A DNA stretch of 53,927 bases, counting the filler, from Jimgerdemannia flammicorona (lineage: Eukaryota), in NCBI GenBank assembly GCA_003990765.1. It is 2 parts of 2 records of this genome, joined end to end, with 100 filler letters (N's around TTAATTAATTAA, not from the genome) between each part and the next. Parts side by side here need not be neighbours in the genome. Positions count along the whole stretch, not along the records: positions 27,015 to 53,927 come from RBNJ01000683.1; 1 more part is not named here. One strand, written 5' to 3'. Below the pieces are notes generated by a model that saw only the letters and a program-made list of their open reading frames with translations, was not told the DNA's origin and did no database searches. Positions 1 through 46,238 of this stretch are shown here, one piece after another. The position numbers and the translations under genes are program-made. Each line of letters starts with the position of its first letter. Within the stretch, counting starts at the first letter, position 1.

Positions 1-2474
1 CACTTGGACTCTGCCATTTATTACCAGTCTATTGTTAAATATACATTTTTCCACCTACTATCCAATCCCCATAGGAGGGCCTCACCCTATCCCACTCCAA
101 GTAAAGACCACCTTCTCCCCAACTACTCCCACCCTTCCCCCACTCTGCCTACAAATATTCTCCACCAGATTGCGCCTCCGACCCTGCTGTATCTCCTAAC
201 TGAGCCACCAGCCAGTCAAGGTATCCTCCATAAGGTTCTGCCACTGCCGCAGCCAGACCTCCAAGCCCAGTCTCCTCCTCTCCTCGAAAACAAATAACCA
301 GTGACCGGCCAACCCGACCCAAATGGCCAGTGCCCAGCCAAGCATGAGCCAGTCCTTTCACACCCCCCCCACCAGTCTGTCGCTCAAGTCCTCCCACCAC
401 CTCCACATGCCAGAAACCCTGCCCCTCACCCCCAGATGATTCCCAACAGATTGCCAAAAGTCACAAAGAACCTCACACTCCCCTAGCCAATGTTCCAGTA
501 TCTGTACATAACTCCCTTCCTGACCCACATTATAGCACTCCTTGCAGTCAAAACAGCTCCCCTCAACAAGGTGACCTGAGTGATAATTGAGCATGACATT
601 CCTCCTCAACATGTGCCACCAAGTCACTCAATACATTGGTGGCATCCATCTTTTCACCTCAGCACTCCATGTCCAGATACTCTGCCAGTCCCACTCCTCG
701 CCAATTCCTATACCTTGTCAACCACTGGGTCACAGATCCTGGCCTAGTCCCCTCTGGCAGTCTATTCCATCACTAATGTCAAACTTGAGCAATGGGACCC
801 CACCCAGTAGTACCCGGTCCCATCTCCACATCTCCAGGTCCCAATCTTCCTCCCCTTCATTTCCTTGCCAATGGATCCCAATGCGGTGTGCCCCCTGTGC
901 TATCCCCCACCAGAAGCCTTTAAATCGCAATTGAGCAGTGTTCTGAAGTCTAACCAAGGACAGGAGATCACCAGTTGAGCCCCAAGGCATGGACCTCCTC
1001 TCCCAAACCTTCTGCAATAGGGGAACCCAACCACCCCCTCTCAATTCTATGGCTCTCCTCAGTCACCAAGCCCTCAAGCAGTATAGCCTCTTTGGAAAGT
1101 CAACCAGTCCCAGTCTGCCACTCACCACTAGTAGAGACAAGACCTCCCAACTTATCTGACTCCTCCTTCCAGCCCAGATCCAACCCTTGGCAAGCTTCAA
1201 CAGCCTCTTTACCACTCATGATGGGAAGTCCAGATGGTACACCAGATATCATAACTTCAGCAGCCAGTAGATGTTCAAAATTGTAACACACCCTGCCAGG
1301 GACAGTTGACGGCCCCCCCAACTCTGCAGGGCCTCCCCCCAGATGCCAACCCGCTGCTCCCACCAAAGCCTGGGTAGTACTGACCCATATACCAAAAGAT
1401 AAATCCCCAAGTACTGCATGGCCTCACCAGCAGGGACAATTGTTCCAATAATCTCCCCTCCCACCAGACCATTGCTAAGTACTATTGTTTCATACTTATG
1501 CCAATTAAGTCACACCCCAGAATTCTTCTCATACCACTCCACTGTCTCCTTAAGCTCCTCAACATCCACGATTGATCCCAATCCGACCACCATATCATCT
1601 GCAAATGCCCCCACCTTCCACTCAACGCCAAAGATGGAAAGCCCCACTATCTTCCGCCTTATTCTATCCAAAAGTGGTTCCAGAGAGAGGGTATACAGAA
1701 TGGGGGACAGCGGGTCCCCCTGGGGTACCCCCCTGCCCAGGGGAAAAGCCACCCCTCGATGTCCATTACACATGAGTACTGCTCTACTCCCTTCCAGTAG
1801 ACTGACCATTGCTGACCGGAACTGGTGCAGAACCCCAGCCCTATACAAAACTTTCACTAGCCAACCATGCCTCACTCAGTCATAAGCCTTCTCCTGGTCC
1901 AAGAAGACCAGACACCCATCCAATCCACAAGCCCATGCCCCTTCAATTACTCTATGTACCCAGGCTGTGCCATCCCTAATGAGCCGTCCCCCTACAAAGC
2001 CCCTCTGCTTAATGCCTAAGATTTGCTGTGCCACTTTTTGTAGTCTCGCAACCACTACCTTAGTAACCAACTTCCTGTCCATATTCAGGAGCATTATCGG
2101 CCTCCAATTCTTCAAGTCCTCTCGCCTTCCTTTGTTCTTGTAGAGCAATGTCACCAACCCCAGATCCTGCTCCCCCACCCATTTCCCTGTCTGTAGAATA
2201 AGATCACACAATGCCGTCATCTCCCCCAGTACTCCTGGAATCCTGACCATCTTCTTCCAAAAGTTCCAGGGCAAACCATCTTTGCCAGGGGCTGTACCCA
2301 AGGTTGTCGCGGCAAGAACCTGGTGGATCTCCTCCTCTTGGACTAGCAATACCAAGTCACCCATCCCATCTACCCATGGGGGTTGCCAATTTTCTAATGC
2401 ATGGCCAATCATATCGGCATCCACACCTCCCTCCTCCTCACTCCACAGTCCACTCCAGTGCTCCTTTAAAGATC
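1..2474 (-). mobile_element. 5'-truncated L1/Tx1-like non-LTR retrotransposon (copy A), RT and C-terminal part of ORF2, decayed
   Basis: Minus-strand ORF pieces carry non-LTR RT motifs APGKDGLPWNFW, KNWRPIMLLNMDRKL, QRGFVGGRLI, FLDQEKAYD, GVPQGDPLSP and AFADD, with in-frame stops. The sequence is collinear with 2493-4965. Confidence 0.93.
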
Positions 2475-2491
2475 TTTTTTTTTTTTTATAG

Positions 2492-5400
2492 TCACTTGGA
2501 CTCTGTCATTTATTACCAGTCTATTGTTAAATATACAGCCTTCCACCTACTATCCAATCCCCATAGGAGGGCCTCGCCCCGCCCCAACCCAAGTAAAGAC
2601 CACCTTCTCCCCAACTACTCCCACCCTTCCCCCACTCTGCCTACAAATATTCTCCACCAGATTGCACCTCTGACCCTGCTGTATCCCCCAACTAAGCCAC
2701 CAGCCAGTCAAGGTATCCTCCATAAGGTTCTGCCACTGCTGCAGCCTGACCTCCAAGCCTAGTCTCCTCCCTTCCTTGAAAATAAATAACCAGTGTCTGG
2801 CCAACTCTACCCAAATGACCAGTACCTAGCCAAGCATGAGCTATTTCTTTCTCACCCCCCCTACCAGTCTGTCACTCAAGTCCTCCCACTGCCCCCACAA
2901 GCCAGAAACCCTGCCCCTCACCCCCAAACGATCCCCAACAGAATGCCAAAAGTCACAAAGTACCTCACACTCCCCTAGCCAATGTTCTGGCATCTGTATA
3001 TAATCCCCTTTCTGACCCACATTATAGCACTCCTCGCAATCAAAACAACCCCCCTCAACAAGGTGATCCAAGTGGTAATTGAGCATGACATTCCTCCTCA
3101 ACATGCGCTACCAAATCACCCAATACTTTGGTGGCATCCATCTTTTCACCTCAGCACTCTATGCCCAGATACTCTGCCAGTCCCACTCCTCGCCAATTCC
3201 TACACCTTACCAACCACTGGACCACAGATCCTGGTCTAGTCCCCTCTGGCAGTCTATTCCATCACTAATGTCAAACTCAAGCAATGGGACCCCGCCCAGT
3301 AGCACCTGGTCCCATCTCCACATCTTCGGGTCTCAATCTTCCTCCCCTTCATTTCTCTGCCAACAGATCCCGATGCAGTGTGCCCCCTCTGCTATCCCCT
3401 ACCAGAAGCCTTTAAATTGCAATTGAGCAGTGTTCTGAAGTCCAACCAAAGACAGGAGATCGCCAGTTGAACCCCAAGGCACAGACCTCCTCTCTCAAAC
3501 CTTCTGCAATAGGGGAACCCAACCACCCCCTCTCAGTTCTATGACTCTCCTCAACCACCAAGCCCTCAAGCAGTGAAGCCTCTTCGGAAAGTCAACCAGT
3601 CTCAGTCTGCCACTCGCCACTGGTAGGGACAAGACCTCCCAGCTTATCTGACTCCTCCTTCCAGCCCAGATCTATCCCTTGACAAGCTTCAACAGCCTCT
3701 TTACTATCCAGGATGGGAAGTCCAGATGGTATGCCAGATATCATAACTTTGGCAGCCAGTAGATGTTCAAAATTGTAATACACCCTGCCAGGGATAGTTG
3801 ATGGCCCCCCCAACTCCGCAGAGCCTCCCCCCAGATGCCAACCCGCTGCTCCTACCAAAGCCTGGGTAGTACTGACCCATATACTGAAAGATAAATCCCC
3901 AAGTACTGCACTGTCTCACCAGCAGGAACAATTGTTCCAATAATCTCCCCTCCCACCAGACTATTGCCAAGCACCATTGTTTCACACTTATACCAATTAA
4001 GTCACACCCCAGAATTCTTCTCATATCACTCCACTGTCTCCTTAAGCTTCTCAATATCCATGATTGATCCCAATCTGACCACCATGTCATCTGCAAAGGT
4101 CCCCACCTTCCACTCAATGCCAAAGATGGAAAGCCCCACTATCTTCTGCCTTATTCTATCCAATAGTGGTTCCAGAGAGAGGGCATACAGAATGGGGGAC
4201 AGTGGGTCTCCCTGGAGTACCCCCCTGCCCAGGGGAAAGGCCACCCCTCGATGTCCATTATACATAAGTACCACTCTACTCCCTTCCAGTAGACTGACCA
4301 TTGTTGACTGGAACTGGTGCAGAACCCCAGCCCTATCCAAAACTTTCACCAGCCAACCTTGCCTCACCCGGTCATAAGCCTTCTCCTGGTCCAAGAAGAC
4401 CAGATGCTCATCCAATCCACAAGCCCATATCCCTTCAATTATGCCATGTACTCAGGCTGTGCTATTCCTAATGAGCCATTCCCCTACAAAGCCCCTCTGC
4501 TCAATGCCTAAGATTTGCTGTGCCACTTTTTGTAGTCTTGCAACCACCACCTTAGTAACCAACTTCCTGTCCATATCTAGGAGCATTATCAGCCTCCAAT
4601 TCTTCCAGTCCTCTTGCCTTTCTTTGTTCTTATAGAGCAATGTCACCAACCCCAGATCCTGTTCCCCCACCCATTTTCCCATCTGTAGAATAAGATCACA
4701 CAATGCTGTCATCTCCCCCAGTACTCCTGGAATCCCAACCATCTTCTTCCAAAAATCCCAGGGCAAACCATCTTCACCAGGTACTGTATCTGAGGTTGTT
4801 GCGACAAGAACCTGATGGATCTCCTCCTCTTGGACTGGCAATACCAAGTCACCCATCCCATCTACCTGTGGGGGTCGCCAATCTTCTAACGCATAGCCAA
4901 TTGCATTGGCATCCACACCACCCTCCTCCTCACTCCACAGTCCACTCCAGTGCTCCTTTAAAGATCCAAGAATGTCTTGAATATCATAGACCAGGACTCC
5001 ATCTGAATTGAGTACCTCCTCCCACCTTTGTTGTACTCTTCTTACCCACAGGACCCTTGTGAGGAACTTAGAGGGCCTCTCTCCTTCCTCCAAACCCTGC
5101 CACTATAACCTAGCCACCAAGCCCTTCACCCTTGCTTCTTCCTCCTCTCGCAGCACCTGTTGTAGTTCACCAACCTCCTTTTTTACTCATATGGACCTCT
5201 AATTCTCCTCTCCCTCCAATGTCACCAGTCTTGCCCAATCTTCGAAGAGCCTAGCCAGTCTACTAGAGGCCCATCTCACTTTTCACCTCCTCTGTTTCCC
5301 AGCCTCCTTGCCAGCCTCACTCCAGTACGTCTTGGCCAATGCCTTCATTCGCATCCACCAAATATCAACTGGAGTACCTTTCTGCCTCCAACTTGCTACC

Positions 5401-6206
5401 TATAGCTGAATGTCTGCAGCCCACCCATCCCACCAGATTCTATCATCTAATAAGGAGGAATTGAGGTGCCAATGTCCAGGCCCATCCCCACTTCCCCCAA
5501 ACTGACCCTGTCCAAAAATCCCCTAGTGATCCGACCAAGGACACCACTCCACCTCCAGTGATCACCAAACATCCAAACCCCAGCAGCTGGCCATCAGAAT
5601 CCAATCAATTCTTGTCCCCAAGCCTCCTGCCCAATGCGTATATACTCTCCTATCCCCCCAGCACTTCCTACCTGCATCTACCAGAGCACTCAGTCTTTCC
5701 ACTTCCTCCCATACTGCCAGTCCTCCACTCTGACCCTCAACTCCTTATCTGCCATCAGTTCTGTCTAACAGTGCCTCCCGAACCATATTGAAATCTCCAC
5801 CCAGTATATCCATCCCACTCTCCGCAAGTGTCCCACTCTCTTAAAGACCCTTCACCCAGTCCACATGCTCACTCCATACAGCAGGGCAGTAACAAGATCT
5901 CACTGTAATTGGCCCCCATCCAGTATGTATCCACTCGCTCCAGACCAGTCTATTTTCCCAGCTCTGCATATTTCTTATCTCCCCTTTGCCTTTTCATATC
6001 AGAATCCCAACCTTGCTCATCCAAACTGCCTCACCTCCCCATTCCTTCATCCATTCCAGTTTATCCAAGTCCTTGTCACACCTGACATCCTGCAAGAGGA
6101 AGAGATCAGCCTCCAATCCCTTCAGCCAAGTAAAAATATTCCTCCATTGAGAAGCACCCTGTAACCCATTTACATTTAATGAAAAAATGTTAGTTGTACT
6201 ATTCAT
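2492..6206 (-). pseudogene. LINE ORF2: apurinic-like endonuclease plus reverse transcriptase, with stops and frameshifts
   Basis: MNSTTNIFSLNVNGLQG...ADLFLLQD (APE N-terminus); EGERPSKFL; VPGEDGLPWDFW; FLDQEKAYDRV; QGDPLSP; TFADD. Confidence 0.9.
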
Positions 6207-6227
6207 ATTGATGTATAGTGTTTTTAT

Positions 6228-8263
6228 CTAGTCCATCTCTACTGCTCTAAGTTCATCTCTTCCTACACCATGTCCAGATTATGCTCCGCAGTCACTGCCT
6301 CTTCTTCAGCCCTCTGAGCCTCCAATCCAGCCAACAGCTCATTTATCTCTCTATCTGCCTTCTCTTCAAACTCCTCTCAGTATTCCTGGCAGGCCTCCTG
6401 TCAGAGCTGCAATCCATATCACTTAGCCCAACAATACCTGGCCCTCTCACCAGCAACCCCTGCTAATTCAGTCTCTCACTCCTTATCTACCTCATACTCT
6501 TCCTCCTTCAGATATACTGCAAGGATCTCCGCCTTCAATGCTAACTCCACACCATCATCCTGCAGTACCCATGCCCAATGCTCATCACTCATTACCCTCA
6601 AGTCCACCTCCCCAAGCTCTTCAGCCGCTAGATTATTCATCATCCTACACATCCAAAGTAAATTTCCAACCTCCTTCCCTTTCAGGGTCACCAGTCTTCT
6701 ACCATCCAACATCGTGATATCTGCCCCGGCACTCGCTGCCTCATCCCACACCTCTGGGACATCCACCAATTCCTCCTCCCCAACCTCTACCACCTGTCCC
6801 CCCTTTGCTACCTCAGGCATGCCAAATTGCACTCACTGGGCCCCCTTCATTGGCACATCTTCTCCTGCCCTGCTCCAGTAGGCTGGCCCTCACCTGATGA
6901 GAGGGGTAGGGGTGGGCGATCCCACCCAGTCCTCCTCCCAGACCTCGAACATACCATCAGCAAATGAGTCACCACCAGCCACCTTTCTGTCCTCCACTGT
7001 TTCTTTCCCTGCACTCCTATCCTTCTTGCTAGCCCAGATACTCACCTTGGCTCCCCCTGGTTCCGCCCTTCCACCAGCCTCCTCCAATGGTCGACTCTCC
7101 ATCTTAGCCAGTAGCTCCTTCTGATGTTTACGGCCCTGAGCTATTTCCCATTGCCTCTTATCTACTCTGATCCTTTTCCCATCCACCACCTCCAAGTGCA
7201 TTGACTCCTCATAGGACTTCCAAGCCTTTGTCTGCCACTTTACCACTCCACTCATCTCTTCCAGTACCTCTAGCAAATCCTCTTCCTCCTTCTCACTCCC
7301 CTTCACCCTCATCACCTTGCACGAGATCACCCCCCAGACCATCACTGAAGGCCAGTCCCTTGTCTTCCCTGTAGCTTCTTTCCCTACCAGCTGAATCCAC
7401 ACATCCATGTCCCCAGTCCTGAGCAAGGTCTCTTCCCAGACCCTGAACCCAATATTCACTACCTCACCATACTCCACCATGACCTCCTCGACTCTCTTTC
7501 TCATCTCCATCACCATCACCATGGGCACTCCTTTCACCAGAAGTTGGACCACCCTGGGGTCTCATTTCAGACAACGCACCATTGGGACACACACCTCTCT
7601 AATGACCAATCCAACTTTCAGTGCCTCCTCCAGGGGCTCCACCTCCTCAAAACCCATCTCTACTCTCTTCAATCCTTTAAGGAACTTCATGGACGCCACT
7701 CCAGCCACCTGCTTAGCGATAAGCCCCAGCACCATTTTCGCTGTCACTGCCAGACCCTGGAAGTACAGTATCACCACAAATGCTGAGATTAATTTCTTGA
7801 GTAACGGTGCCACTGCCAGGTCCATCACACTATCCGCCAAGTCTCTCTGCCTTCTAAGCCTCATCTGCTCAGCCATACCATCAGCCATCACATCTGGATT
7901 TTTTTCCAGATTGGCAGTCCTGTCACCATCAGCCATCACACCCCCCCCCAGCCACTACTCCCCCAGCTCTGCCGCTCTCACCCCCAAGTACTACTCCCCT
8001 ATGAATTGTCGTCATCTCCATCTTCTTGCCCTTCCTCAGCCAACCCTCCAGCCCTGTTGTCTGTTGCCTCCCCTTTACCATCTCTGCGAAGCTTGCCCTC
8101 CCAGATCCCTATCCTCTCCTGCCTCCTCCACTCCTCCTCGTCCTCCTGCCAACAGCCCTCTCATATCACCCCCCAGACCAGGACCTCTCCCCACCTGCTG
8201 CCAGTCAAATGTGCTAGGGCCGCCCTGCCCAGTATGCACCCTAGAGTACTTGTTGTTTGCCAT
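6228..8263 (-). pseudogene. LINE ORF1 (gag-like), interrupted; 3' boundary approximate
   Basis: ATG at 8263 (MANNKYSRVH...). Pieces 7562-7939, 6890-7552 (VQLLVKGVP...EYGEVVNIGFRVWEETLLRTGDMDVWIQL, resembling L1/Tx1 ORF1) and 6476-6832 lie on the same strand, upstream of ORF2. Confidence 0.7.
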
Positions 8264-17832: not shown

Positions 17833-20800
17833 CTACTGTTCATCCACTTCCTGAGCCACGAACAACGGGTATTTCTCGAGGACCGATGTCCAGGTAATGG
17901 TTTCGTCCGACAGATCACGCAGTAACTGCAGCACGACCTCGACGCTCTGACGGATCTGCTTAGTGGTATCGCGCTCGCGCAGAGTCACCGTGCCATCCTG
18001 CACCGTCTGGAAGTCAATAGTCAGTGCGAAGGGGATACCGAGCTCATCGTTTCGAGAATATCGCCGGCCAATGGCGGCTTTGCTATCGTCTGTGCGCGAC
18101 GAGATGTTAAGGCGACGAAGCTTATAGGCTGTGTAGGGAAAGTCAAATAAAGCTGTAGTCATTCTGAACACCCGACAACATGTGACGAAACGCCATATCT
18201 CCTACATGACCTCAATCACAATACACTATCCTATCAATTGTTTCTCCCTCCCCCCCAATGCATCGCATCGTTTAAAACATCAACTTACAGAGGTCCCTCA
18301 CAATAGGTACAAAGGAAGTATGGCCCGACAAAGGCAGTAAGGCGCACTTGAACGGCGCGACGATGGCCGGGAACGAGAGGACGTTCCGGTTCTCATCATC
18401 TTCGCGGGCCCACCAGACGTGCTCGATGAGCGAGTAGAGAATGCGACCGATACCAAACGAGGGCTCAATCACGTTAGGGGTGTATTCGCGAACTGCACAA
18501 CAAGGAGAGATAGGATGATGAGCCAAATTGTACGAAAGATTGCAGACGAAGAGCTGCTAACAAACCCCTCAAATACACAAGGGCGTATTCGTTACCGTGC
18601 TCTGTGACTGTCACCTTCTGAACGGTCACCTCGTTCCTGGTAATCTCCACTTGCTCGCCATCGACTGTGACGACGAACTTGTCATTTTGCTCCAACTCCC
18701 TCGCGTGACGTTCCAGGTCCTGTTCGGAAAACGCGAGCAGCTGCTCTTCGAGGACTTTGGCTTGCTTCTTGTATTTGGGGCCGAACACCTTCTTATTAAT
18801 CTCGAGCTGCCATCGTTCTACCACCTTAGGCTCGGGAAGTTGCTCGCGGACCACAAGCTTCTCTTTTGTGCGATTGGAGTGCACTGTCAGATCATAAGCA
18901 GAGCGGTCGGCGCAGCCGACGCACTCGATCCAGCCCTGTAGAATTGTGGCGATGAAAAGAACATTTTATGAGGGGTTGGAGATAATAGAGATAACTAGTG
19001 AGGCAAAGAAGAAATCGCGACAGATGAGTAAAAAGCGGCGACGTACATAGCTGCTTTGGATCTCGGCATCCCAACAATCACACGCGTAGTGAGCCATCTC
19101 GTTCGGCATGTGCTGACGGAATCGCAAGCGATCCTTCTTGATACCAAGCTTGGTAAGGAAGAGGTAGATGCGTGCGAGGAAGTAGCCAAGAGTCTTATTG
19201 TCGACGATACCCTGAGCAATTTAGGAGTATGATATTCATCAGTCTTGAGACTACATTCAATCTGGGCCCCTCAAGAATGTATGATGCATGTCGAGAAGAG
19301 CGATGTGAAAACATGAGGGCTGTGAAACCAACCTTTGCAACGGCCTCGTCGATGGTCATGGGCGTGATGTCTGTTTTACCGGCCTGCTGTACAGAAGCTG
19401 GAAGCAAGTTGAGGACGACGTCCTTGACGTCGTCGAAGCGCACGTGATCTTTATTTAGCGGATCGACGAAATGCTCGATCTCGGCCATGGTGAATTCGCT
19501 ATTGGAATGCGAGGCAAATGAATGTGCGAATAGAATCGTGAGGCAAATTACAAGCTCGTTCGGAATGCACGTATTAAAGGCAATAGACACGTACCGCACG
19601 CGTAGTAAACCAGAGCGGGGCGAGATCTCGTTACGGAAAGAACGACCAATCGATGCAGACGCAAAGGGCATTTTGTCGTTGTTGAACTCAAGGAGTTTTT
19701 TAAAGTTGAGGAATTGACCCTGTGCGGTCTCGGGGCGGAGATAACTTAAAAATGATATCACCATGTAAGATGGCAGTATTGATCAATAAAAACGAGTCCA
19801 ACCCTCGATGCAGTCACCATTGAGCCCGAAATTCGTAATCGCCTGCAAGAAAACGCCCAAGAAGGTTGTGCGGTAATACCTACCCCTTGAGCTGACCTGT
19901 CGGACCGATCGAGCTTTGGAACATGAGGTTGAACTCTTCGGGTTCCGACAGGTCGTTGCCGGTCTCGGGAGACTTGATAGTGTATTTGTGCATAATAGCG
20001 CCGAGCTCGGGACCGGTGTAGTTGTCGATCTTCAATAGGAATAGAGAATAAGTAGAATAAGTGAAGGCACGTTTGTGTGATGTTTGGATGGTTTACTTCG
20101 CCAAAATTTGCTCAAAAACAATGTGTCCAGAATGACGACAATAGTTATAATTTCCTTTCACCACATCCAGCACGTGCGCGAAATACAACTTTACCTTAGC
20201 AAGAATCTCCTCATACTCCTGTTTCACCTCGGCGTCCAATGCCACCGCCACGACCCTAACCTTTTTTTTGTTAGTCTTCTTCGCCACCGGCTCTTTTGTA
20301 TCATCTTTATCCACCTCCTTCTCAATCACATGGCCTTGGGCAAAACGTGCGTCCTTGTCGCCCTGTAACCTAGCCTCGAGCACCGCCTCAACTAGGTGAT
20401 CAGCGCGGAAGATCTCTCCATTCTTAAGGTCCTTACACATCCAATCGGCGAACTTGTCCACGTGGCCCGAGGTTTTGAGGACGTCGTGCGGCGTCATGAT
20501 GGTTGTGTCCAACTCCAGCATTTCCTCTTCGAGGACGAAGTGGTTACGCCAAAGGGCGAGGATATTAGCTTGCAGCGCGCAGCCGGTGGGACCGTAATCG
20601 TAGAGACCAGCGACACCTGACGGTAATAATAAAGCGAGTAAACCAAAGCGCATATGGTGGAGGTGGTGAGCTTACGGTGAAAGACTACCAAAATGCACTC
20701 AATAAACACAATATTCGCTTTTTTCACACGACAAGACGTGCTCTATGAGGAACGAAGCATACCGCCATAAATGCCGAAAGCGGGCGCGTAGAAGAACCTC

Positions 20801-22760: not shown

Positions 22761-25675
22761 ATGGACCAAAGACCCAGTAGAAAACGTGCAAAGCACGACC
22801 ACCAGACCCCGTACGTATTTAGCCAAGCTGGGTTACATTCGAGAACTACGTGCTATCAATATCTGATAAGCCTTTACTCTTTTATAGCATCATCATTGAG
22901 GTAACAATCCATACCAGCTATCTTTAGCGCGTTCTGGCAATCCATGCTTATGCGTCTTTCATTCTATCTCCGTAGTCTGACGAAGAAGTCTCTCATTCAC
23001 CCCCCGCTTTATCTGCCAATTTGCGCACTGGTATCACATCTTCCGCTACCTTGGGAACTTCACCGAATTATAAATATGCGGACTCCAACATCAAGCTGAC
23101 CGGTATCCAGGACCTCCCAACGTCGGAGAACGTCGACACCGTCACAATAACATCCATCCTTGGTTATGTAGGTATTGGTTCTGCCATCGAACGCCATTGT
23201 ATCAGTACATTGGTGTGGGCCAGTTTTTTAAAGCTCCATGTCTGCAAATAGGGTGATTTGAAGGAGATGGTCCAGCTCAATTACCATGTCGACTTGGATT
23301 GGCTTATGTCTAAATTACCTCCGGAAAAAGCAAATTCGTTACCGACAACCGTAGTCCACGGGTGGCGCCAAGATGAGGCGCACATCATTAAGGTACCGCA
23401 ATGTCAAAGATTTTATATAAAATGATGCAAAGGAGGAGGAGGGGGGAGAAGTTGGTTCGAATTTTTTGTGTCGGATGTTGTACCTAGTATTCGTCCTTTT
23501 ACATATTTTCCCTCAAATTATCTCACAGGAACAAGTAAAGGCTTTTCAAAATGTGAAACTCGTCTTTCCGAGCCTGCCAATACAGTATGGTGAATACCGT
23601 CTTCACTTAATTTCCCTGATCGACCATTTTCATTCTCATCCTCATTTTCATTTTTTTTTTTTTCTTTTTCCCTTCTTTGCTTTTAATTTTCTCGATTTGA
23701 CGGGCGACGATGGGAATCAACCATAGGTACACATCATACCAAGGTAATATGACAGCTATCCCCAAAGGCGCAACGAGTGTGCTGTTCGATTGTGTAATAT
23801 TTGAATGAAGCCCAACTTGTATGCCGCTATTTGCTTATGACTGTGTCTGACAGGCGATGCTTCTCTTCTACAATGATGATACAATGCGCGTAGTCATTCA
23901 TACGGCGAACCTGGTATCGAGTGATTGGAGGTATATCGAGAAATATTATATGAGGTCTTATTGTGGGTGTGTCGCAACTCGCAAATTCATGGCCTCTGCA
24001 ACCCTATTGACTTGAATCTACTTGTTTCTAGGAATAAAACACAAGCTGTCTACACTTCTCCTGTTTTACATAAGAAACGAAGCCCCCAGTTGTCATCATC
24101 GCCAGCAGAAATGAGCATGTTTGAAAAAGACCTGACCGACTACTTTAAGGCTTATGGGCATCAACTGAGTAGATTCTGCGAGCTGTTTAAGGATTATGAC
24201 TTCTCCGAGTGCAAAGTATGCGTGTAGCAGCTGTACCAGCTGCGGCGTTGTTCACAGTTCATCAATAGCACTGTATCAAATGGATCGTTGTCACTTGATC
24301 GATTGTCGCTGTGTTGTTGGTGGTATCACATGCTGCTTGCTAAGTTCCATGTTTTATATCGTTTATTCAATCATCTTGCTGTCCCATCACCACAGGCCAT
24401 CATCGTCGCTTCTGTTCCGGGTTATCACACTGGTGTGAACAAGAAGAAATGGGGCCATTTACGGTTGCGATCAGTGTTGGAACAGCACGTTGTCATTCCT
24501 GATGAGTGCCGAGACAGATCGACAGTTGTTTGTCAGGTATTTACGACACCGGTTTCACACCATGCTTCCCCATATTTGCATATCATGCTACCAACTTCAA
24601 ATATTAAACTACGTCAGTTTTCGAGCATCGGTTCGCTAACCACGTCGGATACCTGGTTTCGGGAAGTATTTGGCGCAAGTTTGTCTAGCGCCAAAAATCG
24701 GAGGCAATGCCGTGACCCAACGTTGAAGATGGTGTTTCCTACTGTTGAAGATGTGAAAGATAGGTAATGTGCGACCGATACAACATGGTTACCTGAACAA
24801 TTTCAATTCTTGTAGTTCCTGGTAGCGCAAAATTTATCGTTAGAATTTGTTGCTACATTTTATAGCCTGGAAGGATGGAACTCGGGGGGAAGTATTCCGT
24901 TTGATCATAGTAAGTTCTGCAGGTAGAATGTGGTATGAAATTGATGATTGTAACTTGCATCATATCCTAATCCACCTTTCTTGGCATCGTTACTGCTGGC
25001 GTTTCACAGATAACTACATGAAACAAAAGGCCTGGATGCGGAATTATCTTTGTAAATGGCGGGGGATTCGATCGGGCCGCCACCGCGCCGCGCCGCATAT
25101 CAAAACATATGCACGATTTACGGTGAATTCCGCCATCAACAATGCTGATTCAGAAGGTAGCTCTGTTGAAATAGTAGACGGATCGGAATCGGACGCAATA
25201 TTGGCGTGGTTCCTGGTTACCAGCAGTAATCTATCTAAAGCGGCTTGGGGAGATCTGCAGAAGAAGGGCGAGCAATTGATGGTACGCAGCTACGAACTGG
25301 GCGTGCTGATTTGGCCAGAAATGTTTAAGGTGAGTGGTGTGTCTCGGTAATTGTCAGTGATGTAATGCTTAACCGATTACGTGGCATGCCGAACTTGATG
25401 TCGAATCCGCATTTGTCATAATCTCTTAGACACCAGAAGGTGAAAACGCTTATATGCTAAACGCAACAAAAACGAATTTGAGACCTATACCGCCTTCAGC
25501 TCTCGTCCCTCAAATCTCCCCTCCCTTGTCAAGCGTAACCAATGTCGTACCCGTACGTCTTCCGTATGATCTTCCGCTCACATCATATGACTTCGACGCA
25601 GGTGACGAGTGCTGGACTTGGAATGTGCCCAGATCAGAGCCAGATTGGTTGGGAAACTTTTGGAGTGGTTCGTAG
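22761..25675 (+). CDS. TDP1: Tyrosyl-DNA phosphodiesterase 1, multi-exon
   Basis: Both catalytic HxK motifs are present: YGTHHTK...IHTANL and AAPHIKTY...TSSNLSKAAWG. Also QLNYHVDLDWLM, NKTQAVY, ASVPGYH, QFSSIGSL, RSYELGVL and LPYDLPL. Introns are GT-AG. Confidence 0.96.
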
Positions 25676-26092: not shown

Positions 26093-26914
26093 CTACTCAT
26101 CGTCATCCCACTCGTCATCGTCTTCGTCATCATCGTCTTCGTCGTCAGATTGGATGCGAGTGGCGCGCGCCTTAAGCACAGCAGCCAGAGAGGTGGCTAG
26201 ATCTCCGCCACCAGCATCTGCAGGAGCGGCAGAGCTTGCGGGCTCATCGTAAGTTTGTTGGCGATCGACCTGGCAATATCAAAGTTCAAAAATTGATAAG
26301 TTAATGCCAAGCGTCAATAACAATGTCAAGGTACGATGCAATTTTCAACACCAGAAGATCATGTGTGAAATAAACATTTACCTTTTTCAATGCATTGATA
26401 CCATTGGCGGAACGAATACTGGCGAGCAAGTCGTCGCGACCGACTGGAGCGGGATGTATTGCAAGAGACCGGGGTGGAGGGGGTACAGCGCTGTTGCTGG
26501 ACATGGGCGGCGGCGGCGGCGGCGGCGGTGGCGGTGGCGGTGGGCCACCAGAGGTCGACATGGGCGGTGGCGGAGGAGGAGGAGGAGGAGGGGGAGGGGG
26601 TGCACCACCGGAAGTCAACATGAGCGGCGGCGGCGGCGGAGGCGGAGGGGCAGGAGAATGCGATTTTTGCTCTTTGGGTTGCTCCCTAGACGGAGGAGGC
26701 GGGGCAGGACCACGCGAAGGTGGAGGTGGGGCAGGACCGCGAGCAGGCGGAGGTGGTGGGGCAGGGCCTCTAAAGGAGCTGGCGGGAGGTGGGGGTGGGG
26801 CATTGTAAGAGGTGACTGGAGGTGGGGGCGGAGCATTGTAAGAGGTTTGGGTGGTGACTGGAGGCGGGGGCGGAGGCGGAGGCGGGGGTGGAGTGTATTG
26901 TTGAACTTGGCGGG
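26093..26914 (-). CDS. WASP/Las17-family actin nucleation-promoting factor, 3' part (5' end cut off at the gap)
   Basis: Polyproline with RGPAPPPP repeats, WH2 GRDDLLASIRSANGINALKK|V, central GGGDLATSLAAVLKAR, and acidic tail DDEDDDEWDDDE*; one intron at ~26270-26381. Confidence 0.9.
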
Positions 26915-27014
26915 NNNNNNNNNNNNNNNNNNNNNNNNNNNNNNNNNNNNNNNNNNNNTTAATTAATTAANNNNNNNNNNNNNNNNNNNNNNNNNNNNNN
27001 NNNNNNNNNNNNNN
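26915..27014. other. Assembly gap / contig-joining linker (artificial)
   Basis: N-run containing TTAATTAATTAA, a six-frame stop linker commonly used when concatenating contigs. Confidence 0.92.
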
Positions 27015-28204
27015 TTTTAATGGACTCATAGTCCCATGGATTTTTATTGGAAGGGAACCTAGACTATATAGGCCAAAACCCTCCCCCACCACCCACTGAA
27101 CAATATCCCTCTATTAATCTAGGCTACTAAATTGTCCAGCAGTCTCACTGCTCCAGCCATGCCTGTTGAACACTGGCTATGTTGACCCTCATGATATAGA
27201 CTAGACTTGTCTGCTCACCAGGACTAGATCATCATTTACATGAGAGAGCACACCTATATATCAGATCTAGCAGTGCTGGGACTAAATAAAGAATAGCCCC
27301 CCAAACCCCAAAAGAAAGCCTGAGGCAAAGAAAAAACCCCCCAACTAACCAATAGAGAGCAAAGTAGATTTAAAGCAGGTGAGTAAAGGACTTATATGCA
27401 GCACCTTCCTCAAAGAACTTACATATGGGCTAGGGCCTGAAAAGACCCCACTCCCACTCTCCAAGCCTGTGGGCCTCGATCACATTATCATGTCAGCTCC
27501 CAGTTCCAGTCAGGTACTGCCAAATAAAGAAGGCCCCACTCCCCAAGCCTGCAGGCCTTGATCATATTGCTGCATCAGCTCCCAGTTCCAGTTGGGTACA
27601 GCCAGAATGCCGGCCCTTGTACCACCCCACCCCCCACTAGCCAATCAAAAGGCCCCACCAAGATATCATCTGCCCCAGCCCTGATGACTGCCCCCAGCCT
27701 GGCACTCCACTGGTTCACTGTAATCACCCTTCCTCCTATCTGTGACAGCCATCTCCCCTCCCATCCTAACATCACCCAAAAAACAGTCACCTATGCCAGA
27801 ACCACACTCACCAGGAAGCTTGCCAAAGCCAGAGGGCCCCACTACAGGCACCAAGGACCTGCAGGTAACCTACACTGAGCACTTGATGCCCAAGGTTGCT
27901 GACTCCCTATATAGTCTGAGACACACCAAGACAGCACCTTGTTGGCGACAGCAAAAGGAAGAAGGCACTACACCAAAACAGATGCACTCCAAATGCAGCT
28001 GAAGACACCAGAAACCACGAAAAAGTGGAGAAGACACTGATCCGACACCAATAAAGGGGCAACTCATCACCATTGCCCTCCTCCCACCATGCCCATGCAG
28101 GCACAGCAAACCAACCCGAGGTAGAGGGGTAATAATAGGGGAAAGGGGACTCAGAAGGTTGCCTACCAAACCTTGTGACTGGTAAGGTAGTGGAGAAAGG
28201 AGCA
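27015..28204 (-). mobile_element. ~1.2-kb retroposon copy 3 (variant with an internal ~80-bp duplication)
   Basis: Collinear with 12702-13874 at both ends. The unit aagcctg..ggcc..gatca...tcagctcccagttccagt occurs twice (~27463, ~27545); the segment at ~27140-27300 is divergent. Confidence 0.9.
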
Positions 28205-28205
28205 T

Positions 28206-28668
28206 TGCACAAAACTCATCATGCTCGACATCTACAACCTATTGGACGAACCGAGTGCTGCGTACTTCCGCGAGTCGAGAGAGAAGTATCTCGGTGCAAC
28301 GCTGGAGAAGTTTTGCGAAGATAAGGAGTCGGCGCGCTCTCAGCTTAAGGTCACCTTGAGCCCGATTCATGATGCGTTAAAGTTCACTGGATGGATTTCC
28401 GGCGAGAATGGTGAGTATCGCGGAAAGTTTGCTGAATACATACTTGGATCATGAGCATACGCGATGTTCATCCCTGATCATTTTCCCGCGCGGTTTTCAC
28501 TTCACGACAGTCGGTTACTCCGATTTCATCCTTGCCGGAGGTTTCATGCTCATGAAAATGGGCAACCCAATCGAATTCGAGAATTCATTGCTGAACGCGT
28601 TCGAAGATGATGTCTTCAGAAGCTGGTGGACAAAAGTCGAGCCGTACGTGTCCGGTAATGGTAATTAG
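28206..28668 (+). pseudogene. Glutathione S-transferase (fungal GSTFuA/LigE-like), C-terminal part, abutting the retroposon
   Basis: KLIMLDIYNLLDEPSAAYFRESREKYLGATLEKF, intron 28411-28510, then WISGEN|VGYSDFILAGGF...RSWWTKVEPY*. The N-terminal thioredoxin-like domain is absent from this contig. Confidence 0.8.
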
Positions 28669-29059: not shown

Positions 29060-29925
29060 TGTGGTTATCGCTTGACCTCGACTCACTATCTTAGGGTTTA
29101 CTCAATGTTAACGTGGTGGCCTCCTGGGAACCTGCGCATACGGAAACTGATCAAATCGAGCGTGCAAAAGCAAGCCGCAGTAAGATATCCATCCCAAAAT
29201 GTGATAACGTGCCACCTCTATTACAAACAAGTGTTGTGTCTCGAAATTCCTGTATTACCAGCCTTTTTTTGATTAGTGATTTTGTAGGTGGCTGGCCTGC
29301 GGTTTCCTAGGACTGGAAACATTTGTGCAACTGGCCTTTCCAGATTTGTGGGCAGAACAGCAGGGCGCTCCGAAGCCGACGGAGCAGCCCAGTCACGACG
29401 TACAGCAACAGGTAGGTAGTCCTCGGGAGTGACAAGGGTTGCTCCATTGTGAGAAAATGTTCGAGGTCCTCTTCGGAAAGATTGGACAGTTCGCCGACAA
29501 CAAGCTTTTGAGCGCGGAAGGGATTGAGGAGCACGTCGTAGAAATCCTTGTTGGCTCGCTCCAAGGGATGGCGACGACGGTTTCATGAGAAGCGATGAGG
29601 CAACACCAAAATCAGCGAGGTCGTGCGCGCGTTCCAGCGCCATCTCCATGAGCTTGGGAAGGAGAAGAAAGCTTGTTGCGCCGTATATTCCTACAGCGAT
29701 GGAAATGTTGACAGTGTTTTCGATGGTCTCGGTATGAATGAAGGCGAGGACAACGTTGAGCACCGCGGAGGTGATATCGTTGAGGACAACGCGATGAGAG
29801 GAACCCTCTCGCATGTTTCCGTACAGCATCGCCTTGAAGCCTAGACATCTTTTTAAGAGATCATATGAAATCAGATTTGTCACGTTATGGCGATGGGCAG
29901 TTCGATGTTGCAGCAACTTCTCCAT
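29060..29925 (-). pseudogene. BTB/POZ (BACK-like) domain gene, frameshifted
   Basis: FKAMLYGNMREGSSHRVVLNDITSAVLNVVLAFIHT...ATSFLLLPKL is a BTB signature. The continuation (ELSNLSEEDLEHFL) is in another frame and the N-terminal BTB strands appear lost. Confidence 0.7.
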
Positions 29926-30230
29926 GAGTCTTTTTGTACATTAGAGTGGCTGGGGAATCTCGGCACATTTTCATTTGGTCCGGTCGTTGCAGCGAGATCT
30001 AAAGGCGTGTTTTCGAGCCTTTAGAGTGGTCGCAGTGGAAGGAATCTCGGCGGAATGACTTTGGCGTTCCGCCATTAGACATGCAAAGAGATTGTGTGGG
30101 AATGGAAAGAAGTTTCGGTGATGGAGAATCAATTTTATATACTTAATCACCCCTTATATATATGCATGCTCACCATGCGCCGAACAATCTCTTTTTACGT
30201 TCCCCTTTTCGCTTATAGAACCTGCAACAG

Positions 30231-41694: not shown

Positions 41695-41862
41695 CTTTTC
41701 TATGGCTTTGTAGGATGACACGGTTACTACAGACGCCTTGTTTTTGATGTAAAAGGTAGCAATTTTGTTTTTATTTAATCCATTTTACGTTTTTCGAAAC
41801 ATTTAACTCGAGTATGAAGATTAGAACACAGCGTTGATTTGCTGGCAATGACGTTCCGCCGG

Positions 41863-42733
41863 TCAATACCCTTGGCCGTAGTCCCCCGGGTGGCCATGCG
41901 AATATTTGTAAGAATAGTAATTATAAGTGTCCTTCTTGTAATAGTCGTCCTTCTTGTAATAATCGTCCTTCTTGTAATAATCGTCCTTCTTGTAGTAATC
42001 GTCCTTCTTGTAGTAATCGTCCTTCTTGTAGTAATCGTCCTTCTTGTAGTAATCGTCCTTCTTGTAGTAATCGTCCTTCTTGTAGTAATCGTCCTTCTTG
42101 TAGTAATCGTCCTTCTTGTAGTAATCGTCCTTCTTGTAATAATCGTCCTTCTTGTAGTAATCGTCCTTCATGTAATAATCGTCCTTCATGTAATAATCGT
42201 CCTTCATGTAATAATCGTCCTTCATGTAATAATCGTCCTTCATGTAATAATCGTCCTTCATGTAATAATCGTCCTTCTTGTAATAATCGCTCTTCTTGTA
42301 ATAATCGTCCTTCTTGTAATAATCGTCCTTCTTGTAATAATCGTCCTTCTTGTAATAATCGTCCTTCTTGTAATAATCGTCCTTCATGTAATAATCCTCT
42401 TCCTTGTAATCGTCCTCTTTCTTGTATTCGTACTCCTTTTTGTAATTGTCCTTCTTGTAGTCGTCTTTGTATTTGTAGTCCTCGTCCTTCTGGCCGTGTG
42501 GGAGAGTGATAATGAATATCATATGCAATCTAGGTAATATCGGCCCAAGACACGTATGCAAAAGATTGCATTTACAATACCTTGTACTCCTTCGACGGGT
42601 ACCGATAGTAATCCGGAGAGTAATAGGCCTCACTGCCCGAGCGCTTGTCGAGCCCGCGGTGCACTTGGGGAGCGGCGGAGACGGCCTGGATAGCGGCGCC
42701 GGCGACCAGGATGGTGAGGAGAAGTTTGGTCAT
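41863..42733 (-). CDS. Secreted Tyr/Lys/Asp-rich repeat protein (~259 aa): signal peptide, Kex2 KR site, ~25 (K/M)KDDYY repeats
   Basis: Exon 1 (42733-42581) reads MTKLLLTILVAGAAIQAVSAAPQVHRGLDKRSGSEAYYSPDYYRYPSKEYK. A phase-0 GT-AG intron spans 42580-42490, and exon 2 (42489-41863) is open through the repeats to ...SHGHPGDYGQGY*. Confidence 0.88.
41938..42387 (-). repeat. Coding 18-bp minisatellite, 25 units
   Basis: The unit A(A/T)GAAGGACGATTA(T/C)TAC is repeated over 450 nt. Confidence 0.95.
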
Positions 42734-44113
42734 TTTCTGTTAATGTTGTGTTTTTTTTTTTTTGGTAAGTTGGTTGGTTGGTCGGGAAGTTTTGGAGGAT
42801 TGTTTTGGAGGCTAGCTTTGGTTTTTGTTGGATCGATGTGTGCTTGATGAGGGTTCAGATGAATGTACTTTGGGTTGTCTTTTATACGAACGAGGGGAAT
42901 TCACATGTTTCCATCTCCATATTTCCAGCACTTACGTTTGCGACTCGCATCACATGGATGAGCAGAAAAGGGCGCACCTACAATGTGGCAGTCGTTTAAC
43001 TCTGGCATCTGTTACACTCCATCTACATCAACTCGTTTATTTCTGTGTGAAATCACAAAAATTAAAGGGATGGGGCCAGCGTACCTCATCTGGGAACATT
43101 TGATTTATATGCGTTCGTATACGAGCACGCAAATCCTCTTCACTAATAGGTGAAATACAAATAGTTTCCATTTTATTAAAGGTTGGACACTTTGACAGCT
43201 ATCTACAGCCTTTCCTATTGTAGGATTATAAGGAGTGTCACAATTTTCCTCTAGATATTACATTGCATGCAAACTCTCTTTTTTGCATATCCGTTTATAC
43301 CCACATACAACTTCACACAAACCTGTTGGCTTTACCCTTTGGTTGAGCAATACTAATATATTCTGAACTAAGACCCGTGTGCGCAGTCATTGTCCCTGTA
43401 TTCCAGCGAAAACTAGTCGCCGGCCGATACACTCCGCTGCGGAGTTCTCAGCCACCCAGATATAGTAATAGTTATTAAAACTACAAACTAAGAGCCCGTG
43501 ATTCTAATTTTTGGTTTCACATGGTGCACTTTCTGTGTAACTAAAGATGTGCACTCGTCACGGGTCAGATTCTGCGATAGGAAATTTGTACGTGGACTTT
43601 CCAACACAATTCGCGATTTGTGTAGACAGACTGACTAGGGGGTTAACACAAAGTTCGTCGTCTCGTAATCAACGCCTCTTACCATTCCGTGTGTGTGCTT
43701 CTTTGTTGTTGACGGCAGTTGTCGAGCCAACTGGTAAGCCCTTGAGCTTTGCGTGGGTCTGTGTCTTCCAGGGATTCGCCCCCCCCCCCGTTTGTTTTGT
43801 GATATATATTATTAGTTACATATCAATGGATTAAGGTCAAGAGAATTAAATACAAATGACAAATGATATAGTTTATCTATTCACACTTCGTCCATCCATT
43901 TCGAATTTTCGACTCATTCACTTTCTCACCCGGCCCCTCCACATCACAATCAGTCCAACCTCAAATCCGCCGCTCCGCCCATTTGCATCTCCGTCACGTT
44001 CCCAACCTACTGCCGCGTTCCGTTGCGAAGGCAACAATCTCGACAGCAACAATCTCGACGGCAACTTCGCCTCCGTCGACGTCGGTTCTCCCCTCACTCC
44101 TCGATCTCCCACC

Positions 44114-46238
44114 TCACGTATCCGATTTATGTAAGGCCTTCTCGCCGTCCTCGATCTCGGCGGGTTTGAAAGCCTCTCTCACCTCCGTCAGAACGATGGT
44201 CCCATCAGATGTCCTAGGCAGCGGCGACGGCAGCACAGGGTGTGTGAGCAACAGCAGTCCGCTGTATGATGGCGGCGAGTTGGGTTGGTGGTATTTGTCG
44301 TCGGCCTTCGTGTCTGAAGACGGGTTAATGACGGCGGGACGTTGACCTCTTTCGCGGTTACGTCGGTGGCGAAGGAAAAGGACTGCGGCGAGGCCAGCGA
44401 GGACGCAGACAGCGATGCCACCAAGCACGCCACCGATGATGGGGCCAAGAGCGGGTTGTTCGGAAGAGGCGTTTGTAGGTTGGTTTGTAGGTTGGGTTGT
44501 GGGCTCGGTTGTTGCCGGGGCGGTAGACATGGAGGATGGTCTGACGAAGGGAGTTGCGGTCGCCTTAAGGGCCCTATTGAGAAATATGAATATTAGTTCA
44601 TTCTCCCTATTCTGGGTCAGATCATTCGCCAGAGTGGAACAAAATATTTTCCACTTACCACTGCATCTTCTCCATGTCATATATGTAGAACTAAAAGAGA
44701 AGAAAAAAAATGGATGGCTCCTTTTAGAAAACCATAATTCTTGAAACAAATAATCAAACGCAACACACGCGCGGTATCTTACCTTGTCTGTATTCCCGGT
44801 ACCATTCCATCCCCCGTAAACGACAAACTATTTCACACGTCAGGTAAGAATCCAAAATACAATTATCTCGACTCCGCCATCCCCCAAGCACATCCGCTCC
44901 ACCCTTCACAATCCCCGTTCCCCACGACATTTGCCCACCTCCCCCCTTCCCTGCGTACCCCCTCAAACCATTCTCTTCCAAAAGCAATACTCACCGAATT
45001 CCCCTGCTGTACGGTGCATGAGTCATAGAGCGCCCCCGGTTGCCCCTGCCCTCCTGTCTGATTCGACACGGTGATGCCAATTCCGAGCGGCATGGAGGAA
45101 TCAGCCTTGAGGTCAAGTAGCTGCAGGGTATTGCTGCGAACTAAACTCACGTGACTGTTGTTAATAAGATCCGCTTTGCCACCTGCAAATTTCATCGGAA
45201 AGGATTGCGAGAAGGCGGCGGTTAGGACGTACATACGTGGCGTGGGCTCAAAAACGAAGCGGATCGGTTGGTGTATACAATAGCTGACCTGGATAGATAA
45301 TAAGACGGTTTGCAGGCGGGTAGAAGAAAACATTACAGTCCTCGAGCGGTTCGGTGAGGTTCGCCGGGTGGAGAAACCATAAACTTGAGGCGATGTCAAA
45401 TATCCATATGGTATTGGTGGAGATGGCATCGGTTATGTTGACGGGGGCATCGCCGCCGACGACGAAAATGACGCCGGCACTGGCGGTGTTTGTGATGTTT
45501 GCGAGGTGCGCCGCGGAGACGTAGATGAGCGTAGGGCGAAACAATTGCGGCGGAAGTACCGGTGCGCTGGCTGCGGCGTTTACGAGTGCGGTACGGCTCG
45601 ACCACGTGAAGGTCGTGAGGTTCAGGACGTAGATTTCCGTTGGGGCTGCGGTGAGCGCTGGGGTCGACGAGTTGAAGTCCTGGAAGATCCACAGTGAGTC
45701 TTCGACGGTGACGATGCGCTGGGAGCATGTTGAGCCCCAAGAGCATCCAAGTATTGCGGGCGGAGTCGGGTAAGTGCCTGAGAGGGCGAGGGTGCCGATC
45801 CAGCGATCATTGTAAATATCGTAACCGATATACTCGTTACCGCCAACAATGAGGGTACCGTTTGGGGTGACAACGCAGGGGCGGATATAGAGCCCACTAG
45901 TGGCGGAATCCTGAGATCCAATGTTGGCAAAGAGATAGTTGATGGATTGATCGGCCCAGACGGGCTGCGAGGAGGTCAGATCGATGGGAAAGGGGGTGGA
46001 CACGAAGAGGCTGGAAGTACTACTTTGGTCCTTGCCGGCGAGGATGTAGAAGCGATTGTTATAAGTGAAGGTGCAGCCCTGAGAGCGCGGGCCTGTGTAC
46101 GATAATTGATGATCAGGTTTAGGAATGTGCGTCAGGGGGCGTTCAGTGTATGGCAGGTTGGGCATATGTACCTGCAAGGTCGGTCATAATGAATGGGACG
46201 AACAGTAACAGCAACAGGACAAGTTGCAAGGCATGCAT
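44114..46238 (-). CDS. Type I membrane protein: signal peptide, Kelch/galactose-oxidase-like beta-propeller, Thr/Pro stalk, one TM helix, cytoplasmic tail
   Basis: Exon 1 MHALQLVLLLLLFVPFIMTDLA splices to GPRSQGCTFTYNNRFYILAG. Kelch-like LIVGG, IFVVGG, IIYPGG and FVVYGG motifs with YDI/FDI...W. TM GPIIGGVLGGIAVCVLAGLAAVLFL followed by RHRR. The 3' end could extend by splicing. Confidence 0.85.

Follow-up and report, generated by a model that had tools for sequence, protein, structure and literature searches.

The known proteins that come closest to the one described here, as compared by eye, are the SP7-family proteins of Rhizophagus, and especially SP5. The founding effector among arbuscular mycorrhizal (AM) fungi, SP7, is described as specific to Glomeromycotina, a claim based on BLASTp of predicted proteins together with island and intron criteria (Betz 2024, PMC11333574). 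The SP7-like family is defined there by a Y[KR]Rx[AP]x[AP] island and a conserved intron; its proteins draw 75–80% of their residues from D, Y, K, S, and G, and the family is reported as absent from Mucoromycotina, with Jimgerdemannia flammicorona on the surveyed list and without a match (PMC11333574). The SP7 relatives RiSP752, RiSP769, and RiSP867 (Kamel 2017, PMC5293756), named SP5 by Betz et al. (PMC11333574), are described as having a leader that ends in A with AP after the cleavage point, a short propeptide ending in KR, a Ser/Tyr linker, and KDDYYKKDD-like units in modules split by RR-x-ALASP (PMC5293756). Induction in the extraradical mycelium was 324-fold for SP7, 543-fold for RiSP752, and 149-fold for RiSP769, in each case above any root tested (Kamel 2017, Table S1, PMC5293756). 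In yeast two-hybrid assays and with 35S-driven expression lacking the signal peptide, all tested SP7-like proteins bound SR45 with or without a nuclear localization signal (NLS), and binding grew with repeat number; Betz et al. suggest the KR of the island as a nuclear signal (PMC11333574).

Secreted repeat proteins have also been described from an ectomycorrhizal fungus, Laccaria, in which MiSSP8 and DW[KR]R proteins are linked to hyphal aggregation in the mantle and fruiting body, and MiSSP8 is cut by Kex2 in vitro to give DSDWRR-type peptides (bioRxiv 10.1101/218131). J. flammicorona (Endogonales), the subject of this analysis, is itself putatively ectomycorrhizal (PMC12574304). A single-exon multicopper oxidase encoded in the genome analyzed is identical to a protein recorded under this species name, and a GH151-like marker for Endogonales had two matches, both below the cut-off.

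A two-exon gene for a tyrosine-rich repeat protein

The window (the whole stretch of J. flammicorona DNA analyzed, 53,927 nt) consists of two contigs, C682 (1–26914) and C683 (from 27015), joined by a run of N at 26915–27014. The repeat gene lies on C683 and, because the two contigs are separate, genes to the left of 26914 are not shown to be its neighbors; these include ORFs at 1876–7522, 17833–20653, 24330–25350, and 26301–26621 that, by their motifs, look like non-LTR retrotransposon pieces, a glycyl-tRNA synthetase, Tdp1, and a WASP-like protein. C683 also carries a BTB-domain ORF (29221–29940, minus strand) and a Kelch-repeat gene with a Thr/Pro-rich, transmembrane-like exon after it (44114–46183, minus strand). 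The features of the gene, all on the minus strand, are as follows.

42880–42886 (minus): TATA box, TATAAAA, ∼150 nt upstream of the ATG, by sequence match
42674–42733 (minus): predicted signal peptide, residues 1–20 (cleavage between VSA and AP, set by eye), from hydropathy; conserved in 24 aligned copies, dN/dS 0.23 over residues 2–21
42641–42673 (minus): propeptide APQVHRGLDKR, ending in a single Kex2-type KR (42646–42641); KR in 21 of 23 copies, KH in one, RR in one
42581–42640 (minus): Tyr-rich linker, residues 32–51, end of exon 1, from translation and alignment of copies
42490–42580 (minus): putative phase-0 intron, 91 nt, GTATTG...CAG (alternative acceptor 42487); donor position common to 23 of 23 copies
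42388–42489 (minus): irregular acidic D/E/K/Y block, residues 52–85
41938–42387 (minus): 25 tandem hexapeptides
41863–41937 (minus): Tyr/His/Gly/Pro tail ending in GQGY, and stop codon; related tail in all 16 complete copies
41770–41775 (minus): AATAAA, candidate polyadenylation signal, by sequence match only

The preliminary description treated 41863–42733 as a single gene in which the array directly followed LDKR. That observation holds, on the minus strand, but the 871-nt span needs an intron that the description did not mention, and 54 residues, comprising the Tyr-rich linker and irregular D/E/K/Y units, intervene between KR and the first hexapeptide. Read without splicing, the frame of the ATG at 42733 meets a stop after 53 codons and the array sits in another frame; the leader and the array appear to be united only by removal of the 91-nt intron, to give a predicted protein of 259 amino acids. 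Exon 1 (42733–42581, 51 codons) would then supply the hydrophobic leader, propeptide, and linker. The donor falls at an identical codon boundary in every one of the 23 copies analyzed (see below), and the second acceptor, 3 nt downstream, may offer an alternative splice choice.

Other elements of that description stand: the signal peptide and the propeptide ending in LDKR are borne out by hydropathy (1.8–2.7 across the first ten 9-residue windows) and by conservation across copies, and its estimate of about 25 repeats agrees with the 25 consecutive hexapeptides counted here. These comprise 17 KKDDYY, seven MKDDYY, and one KKSDYY, so that most units start with KK as described, and six of the seven MKDDYY units form one block. 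Tandem Repeats Finder reported the array at a period of 18 (29.7 copies, 93% matches), with a score of 817 that was the best of 58 rows for the window. A tail of 24 residues rich in Tyr, His, and Gly follows. The predicted mature chain has 228 residues, of which 56% are charged and 32% are Tyr, with a net charge of only −0.04 per residue; the charge of exon 2 is distributed unevenly, at −9 for the N-terminal half and 0 for the C-terminal half, which is the richer in Tyr. AlphaFold2 gave no fold (pLDDT 49.5, from single-sequence input, for which low confidence is expected regardless), and no GPI-like hydrophobic C-terminus was seen by eye in the window protein. On the opposite strand (41838–42537, plus), two long antisense frames, of VIIVLL and RPSCNN type, are shadows of the array.

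A multi-copy family under purifying selection

The 5′ part of the gene has matches at 34 places on 23 contigs of the J. flammicorona genome. Within the loci examined there are at least 36 copies of exon 1, the window gene included, which group into 27 clusters at 95% identity. Alleles or assembly duplicates may account for some of the close pairs, while other copies lie in tandem on one contig. One further array occurs in L037, where the contig is without the corresponding exon 1, and another in L045. An ATG, an open exon 1, and a GT donor were recognized by the parser in 24 of the 36 copies (a further copy, L015:3371, was overlooked by the parser and looks intact), and family statistics refer to 23 of these, one having been dropped because its contig ends inside the intron. 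The family tail and a stop codon are present in 16 of the 23, five run off their contigs, and two are broken in exon 2. The remaining 11 copies have stops or frameshifts, or have lost the ATG or donor. In 32 of the 34 copies with an ATG, the 200 nt upstream contain a TATA-like box.

Substitution patterns indicate that these are protein genes under purifying selection. For exon 1 the pooled pairwise dN/dS is 0.28, a value from non-independent pairs of copies chosen for open frames. Within the arrays there are 86 distinct synonymous variants against 39 non-synonymous transitions, where 144 and 288, respectively, are possible; a further 72 variants are also non-synonymous, and 5-residue units account for some of these as artefacts. 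Across the family, array residues are 32% D, 28% K, and 25% Y, and the N-terminal half is the more negative in 17 of the 18 stop-terminated copies. What is kept is composition, the acidic-to-neutral polarity, and a tail of one of two kinds that finishes near GQGY, while the sequence and number of the units drift.

Several copies show decay or rearrangement. A block of two family genes and an aldo-keto reductase fragment is repeated four times (L013, L014, L017, and L019/L049), with the second gene broken every time. In five broken copies (L013:3467, L014:3127, L017:3089, L019:2873, and L028:956), exon 1 retains 0–1 CpG compared with 6–17 in intact copies, as C-to-T decay predicts; four other broken copies retain 12–15 CpG. 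At L024:976, an exon 1 without a donor has no array behind it, and other sequence begins ∼30 bases into the former intron. An Extensin_1 match in L018 was rejected as spurious, as it comes from an antisense shadow frame.

Likeness to SP7-like and other secreted repeat proteins

By eye, the J. flammicorona proteins share with SP7-like proteins a signal peptide ending in A before AP, a short G[LI]-containing propeptide ending in KR, and a Ser-containing Tyr-Tyr linker. They further share D/Y/K repeats with the literal KKDDYY unit, a compositional bias (D+Y+K+S+G amounts to 69–87% across the 23 copies and 80% in the window gene), predicted disorder, multiple gene copies, and a single intron before the repeats. 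By eye, the 11-residue AP...G[LI]xKR segment resembles the ‘U’ stretch of 10–12 residues that follows the signal peptide in some SP7-like members, although AP...KR is likewise found in the unrelated protein P0002 (below).

There are also differences. Where SP7-like proteins have 6–11 modules, the protein here has one uninterrupted array without an island: Y[KR]Rx[AP]x[AP] occurs in none of the 23 copies, and the narrower pattern Y[KR]RxALASP has no match in the J. flammicorona genome. The intron here follows codon 51, in phase 0; SP7-like genes, among those examined, have theirs within the signal peptide or directly behind it, and in phase 1 where counted. The family here lacks a bipartite NLS, has the conserved GQGY tail, belongs to a different subphylum, and numbers at least 36 copies compared with 13 listed R. 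irregularis genes. Because the published island and signal-peptide intron criteria do not describe it, we term the family SP7-like in character, and not a member of the SP7 family. The likeness was judged by eye, without an alignment score, and is compatible with either common descent or convergence.

Searches for homologs returned little. The preliminary description had proposed finding them through the non-repeat N-terminus, and this yielded a single weak match: in a search of representative proteins, exon 1 matched P0002 (E 8.8e-4). This 103-residue secreted protein has four KR-delimited repeats that start with TGGEAY, which resembles the SGSEAY after KR in exon 1. None of 28 longer candidate proteins matched exon 1, nor did any of 8000 entries scored by exon-1 alignment, and neither exon had a Pfam match. 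Exact look-ups of 10 window ORFs likewise matched nothing. Exon 2 matched one of 4458 proteins, P0001 (E 4.6e-4; 133 residues, source ‘merc’), which has a signal-like stretch and KKDDHY-type repeats, and suggests that the KKDDYY-type unit arose elsewhere too. Metagenome scans gave 594 and 595 pattern matches, none of which was confirmed, and an atlas search gave no usable match. These protein searches are insensitive to low-complexity sequence, and the exon 2 search also missed SP5-type proteins, some of them within its length range. An island-less, single-array D/Y/K family in Mucoromycotina was found neither by the protein searches nor in the open literature searched, whereas SP7-like D/Y/K repeat proteins as a kind are known. 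The preliminary description noted neither the intron nor the gene family, nor the likeness to SP7/SP5.

Two further systems are analogues in kind. MiSSP8, like the protein here, is a secreted protein of short acidic/aromatic/basic repeats from an ectomycorrhizal fungus; its units each carry RR, with Trp instead of Tyr (bioRxiv 10.1101/218131), and no sequence relationship was seen. The AGL proteins of Glomeromycotina are secreted, disordered, zwitterionic tandem repeats that are encoded by clustered genes, poorly annotated, and proposed to self-assemble (Schultz 2022, PMC8786786). In contrast to the protein here, AGLs are rich in Pro, Gly, and Ala and often GPI-anchored, and the text of PMC8786786 does not use the word tyrosine.

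Proposed processing and role of the repeat protein

The preliminary description offered two options, a precursor of short peptides or a charge-balanced extracellular material, and the second agrees best with the sequences. We put at roughly 0.5 the probability that the family encodes a secreted, disordered, Tyr-rich polyampholyte that is cut once and acts whole as an extracellular material. The signal peptide and propeptide would be removed, with kexin cutting once, at KR31, and leaving most KK pairs of the array uncut. Disordered, charged, Tyr-rich chains associate by charge pairing together with cation-pi or pi-pi contacts, and the chains here may likewise associate through Lys-Asp, Lys-Tyr, and Tyr-Tyr contacts. 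The result could be a coat, glue, or matrix on hyphae, mantle, zygospores, or sporocarp, and the whole protein would be an expanded counterpart of the D/Y/K interior of an SP7/SP5 module. With no GPI-like C-terminus seen by eye, the protein would depend on cross-linking or binding to be held in the wall. Dityrosine bonds made by secreted peroxinectin-like peroxidases may fix the chains: the genome has 23 PF03098 matches, along with three multicopper-oxidase matches, and the protein at L052 (peroxidase-DOMON-b561-b5) has a hydrophobic N-terminus and best PDB matches that include peroxinectin A. The loci L053, L057, and L058 resemble L052 by eye, and the four constitute a peroxinectin-like heme peroxidase family. 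Of the cross-links suggested earlier, DOPA or dityrosine, the genome has peroxidases that could make the latter, and tyrosinase was undetected. No peroxidase or oxidase gene occurs among the 119 flanking ORFs scanned (see below), so that the tie to cross-linking is at the level of the genome only.

One argument for a whole chain comes from the contrast between the pro-site and the array. KR at the pro-site is kept in 21 of 23 copies, and a kexin gene is present in the genome, which supports the earlier claim of a secreted precursor with a Kex2 site, at one such site, while KK in the array varies and composition, polarity, and tail are kept. Kex2 prefers KR or RR and cleaves KK less (Le Marquer 2019, PMC6339444), in agreement with the preliminary description. 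The 23 arrays hold 692 KK, 22 KR, and no RR, and 602 of 898 parsed units begin with KK (67%, against 2% with KR), the share ranging from 14 to 96% per gene. Stretches free of dibasic pairs are up to 42 residues long in the window gene, and in L021 up to 84. Where the second K of a unit is replaced, it becomes V (57), E (52), or D (50) more often than R (19). This pattern suits a whole chain more than a peptide precursor. In SP5, too, KK is not the delimiter, since the KKDDYY units sit inside modules bounded by RR-x-ALASP. That SP7 and two SP5-type genes are most induced in extraradical mycelium is consistent, by analogy, with a role at the hyphal surface. Weighing against a whole chain, two thirds of the units start with KK, which Kex2 can cleave to a lesser degree, and the closest known proteins have been reported to act in the plant nucleus and not as structural material.

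The same data bear on the possibility that unmodified short peptides (DDYY, DDDY, DDY, and longer) are freed by Kex2/Kex1 at KK, as proposed for MiSSP8, a reading that we think rather unlikely. It draws on the abundance of KK, on the in vitro cleavage of MiSSP8 by Kex2 (bioRxiv 10.1101/218131), and on the weak match of exon 1 to the KR-delimited P0002, which hints at an ancestry among Kex2-processed repeat proteins. In silico cutting at all dibasic pairs of the 18 copies ending in a stop gave DDDY (105 times), DDYY (95), and DDY (72), but 184 different fragments in all, and MiSSP8 and SP7 use [KR]R instead. Because KK varies across the family, a third of the units lacking it, the release of linear DDYY-type peptides, as first envisaged, is disfavored; partial cleavage within the array may still occur, since two thirds of the units have KK.

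Of similarly limited likelihood is an SP7-type symbiosis effector, whose mature D/Y/K chain would enter root cells, join nuclear condensates, and bind Arg/Ser-rich domains (SR45 RS2) by many weak contacts. The overlap in five-residue bias with SP7-like proteins, the literal unit shared with SP5, the reported binding of SR45 even without an NLS, and the occurrence of a multi-copy family in a putative ectomycorrhizal fungus all speak for it. Against it, the island whose KR Betz et al. suggest as nuclear signal is missing from all 23 copies, and the 23 arrays together contain a single run of at least three K/R, and so no NLS-like stretch. Moreover, the published SR45 assays used yeast two-hybrid and 35S expression without a signal peptide (PMC11333574).

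Extracellular ion binding or mineral templating (Asp for Ca/Fe, Lys for polyphosphate), or a nitrogen store, without a role for cross-linking, appears improbable: the Asp and Lys contents of the array and the net negative N-terminal blocks would suit it, but the 25% Tyr and the conserved Tyr/His tail are unnecessary for such a role.

Less probable still, and largely refuted, is the proposal that the protein is a dikaritin-type RiPP precursor with Tyr cores cyclised by DUF3328 oxidases. With the dikaritin precursors UstA, PhomA, and AprA it shares a signal peptide, dibasic pairs, Tyr, and acidic residues; unlike them, it has no DUF3328 neighbor, no fixed core, 6-residue units, and unconserved KK. 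Known repeat units are reported as 8–14 residues (PMC7329392), and no core between Kex2 sites is conserved from copy to copy. Neither PF11807 (DUF3328) nor PF00264 (tyrosinase) had a match in the J. flammicorona genome, a weak result since both controls were blank. DUF3328 was absent from the 18 window ORFs of the gene's contig, as the preliminary description had reported for DUF3328 and tyrosinase (the contigs are short and the flanks partial). Around the other copies, 119 of 241 ORFs of at least 95 codons were scanned (the longest, with other frames of family genes excluded) and contained no tailoring oxidase; their domains were retroelement, RNase PH, aldo-keto reductase, SDA1, and BTB, with one antisense artefact. 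A survey that had 39 Mucoromycota strains found no DUF3328 proteins outside Ascomycota and Basidiomycota (Umemura 2020, PMC7329392); it does list Kex2-processed repeat proteins from Jimgerdemannia. On C683, 13.4 kb from the repeat gene, is a fragment of a glutathione S-transferase (GST) C-terminal domain (GST_C_7, PF22041, E 4e-10; 28191–28668, plus strand) that continues in another frame. The GST_C_7 family is linked to the ustiloxin cluster, and the fragment is to that extent a point in favor; no N-terminal domain was seen, and the fragment does not recur beside other family copies.

A non-coding minisatellite, or an antisense gene in the VIIVLL or RPSCNN frame of the plus strand, can practically be dismissed: each frame stays open beyond 220 codons, but on the minus strand the copies conserve the TATA box, ATG, signal peptide, donor, and tail, and the purifying selection on exon 1 and on the array, where twice as many non-synonymous transitions as synonymous variants were possible, disposes of the open antisense frames.

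By descent or by convergence, then, J. flammicorona has a large family with the repeat chemistry of SP7, which no protein search here returned. Since the family carries D/Y/K repeats without the island, it provides a natural control that can show if SR45 binding and nuclear condensation depend on the island or arise through composition alone. It is conceivable, though we think it unlikely, that the family shares a true but ancient ancestry with SP7. D/Y/K proteins would then predate the split of Glomeromycotina and Mucoromycotina as secreted, self-condensing hyphal surface material, which AM fungi chopped into Kex2 modules and partly recruited as nuclear effectors, and which an Endogonales symbiont expanded in an uncut form to dozens of copies, cross-linked by its own peroxinectin-like enzymes. 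If so, SP7-type proteins would not be specific to Glomeromycotina, and their ancestral job would be structural. If the J. flammicorona protein is structural, it is a simple polymer of two basic, two acidic, and two Tyr residues, and may explain how hyphae are glued into mantles and sporocarps.
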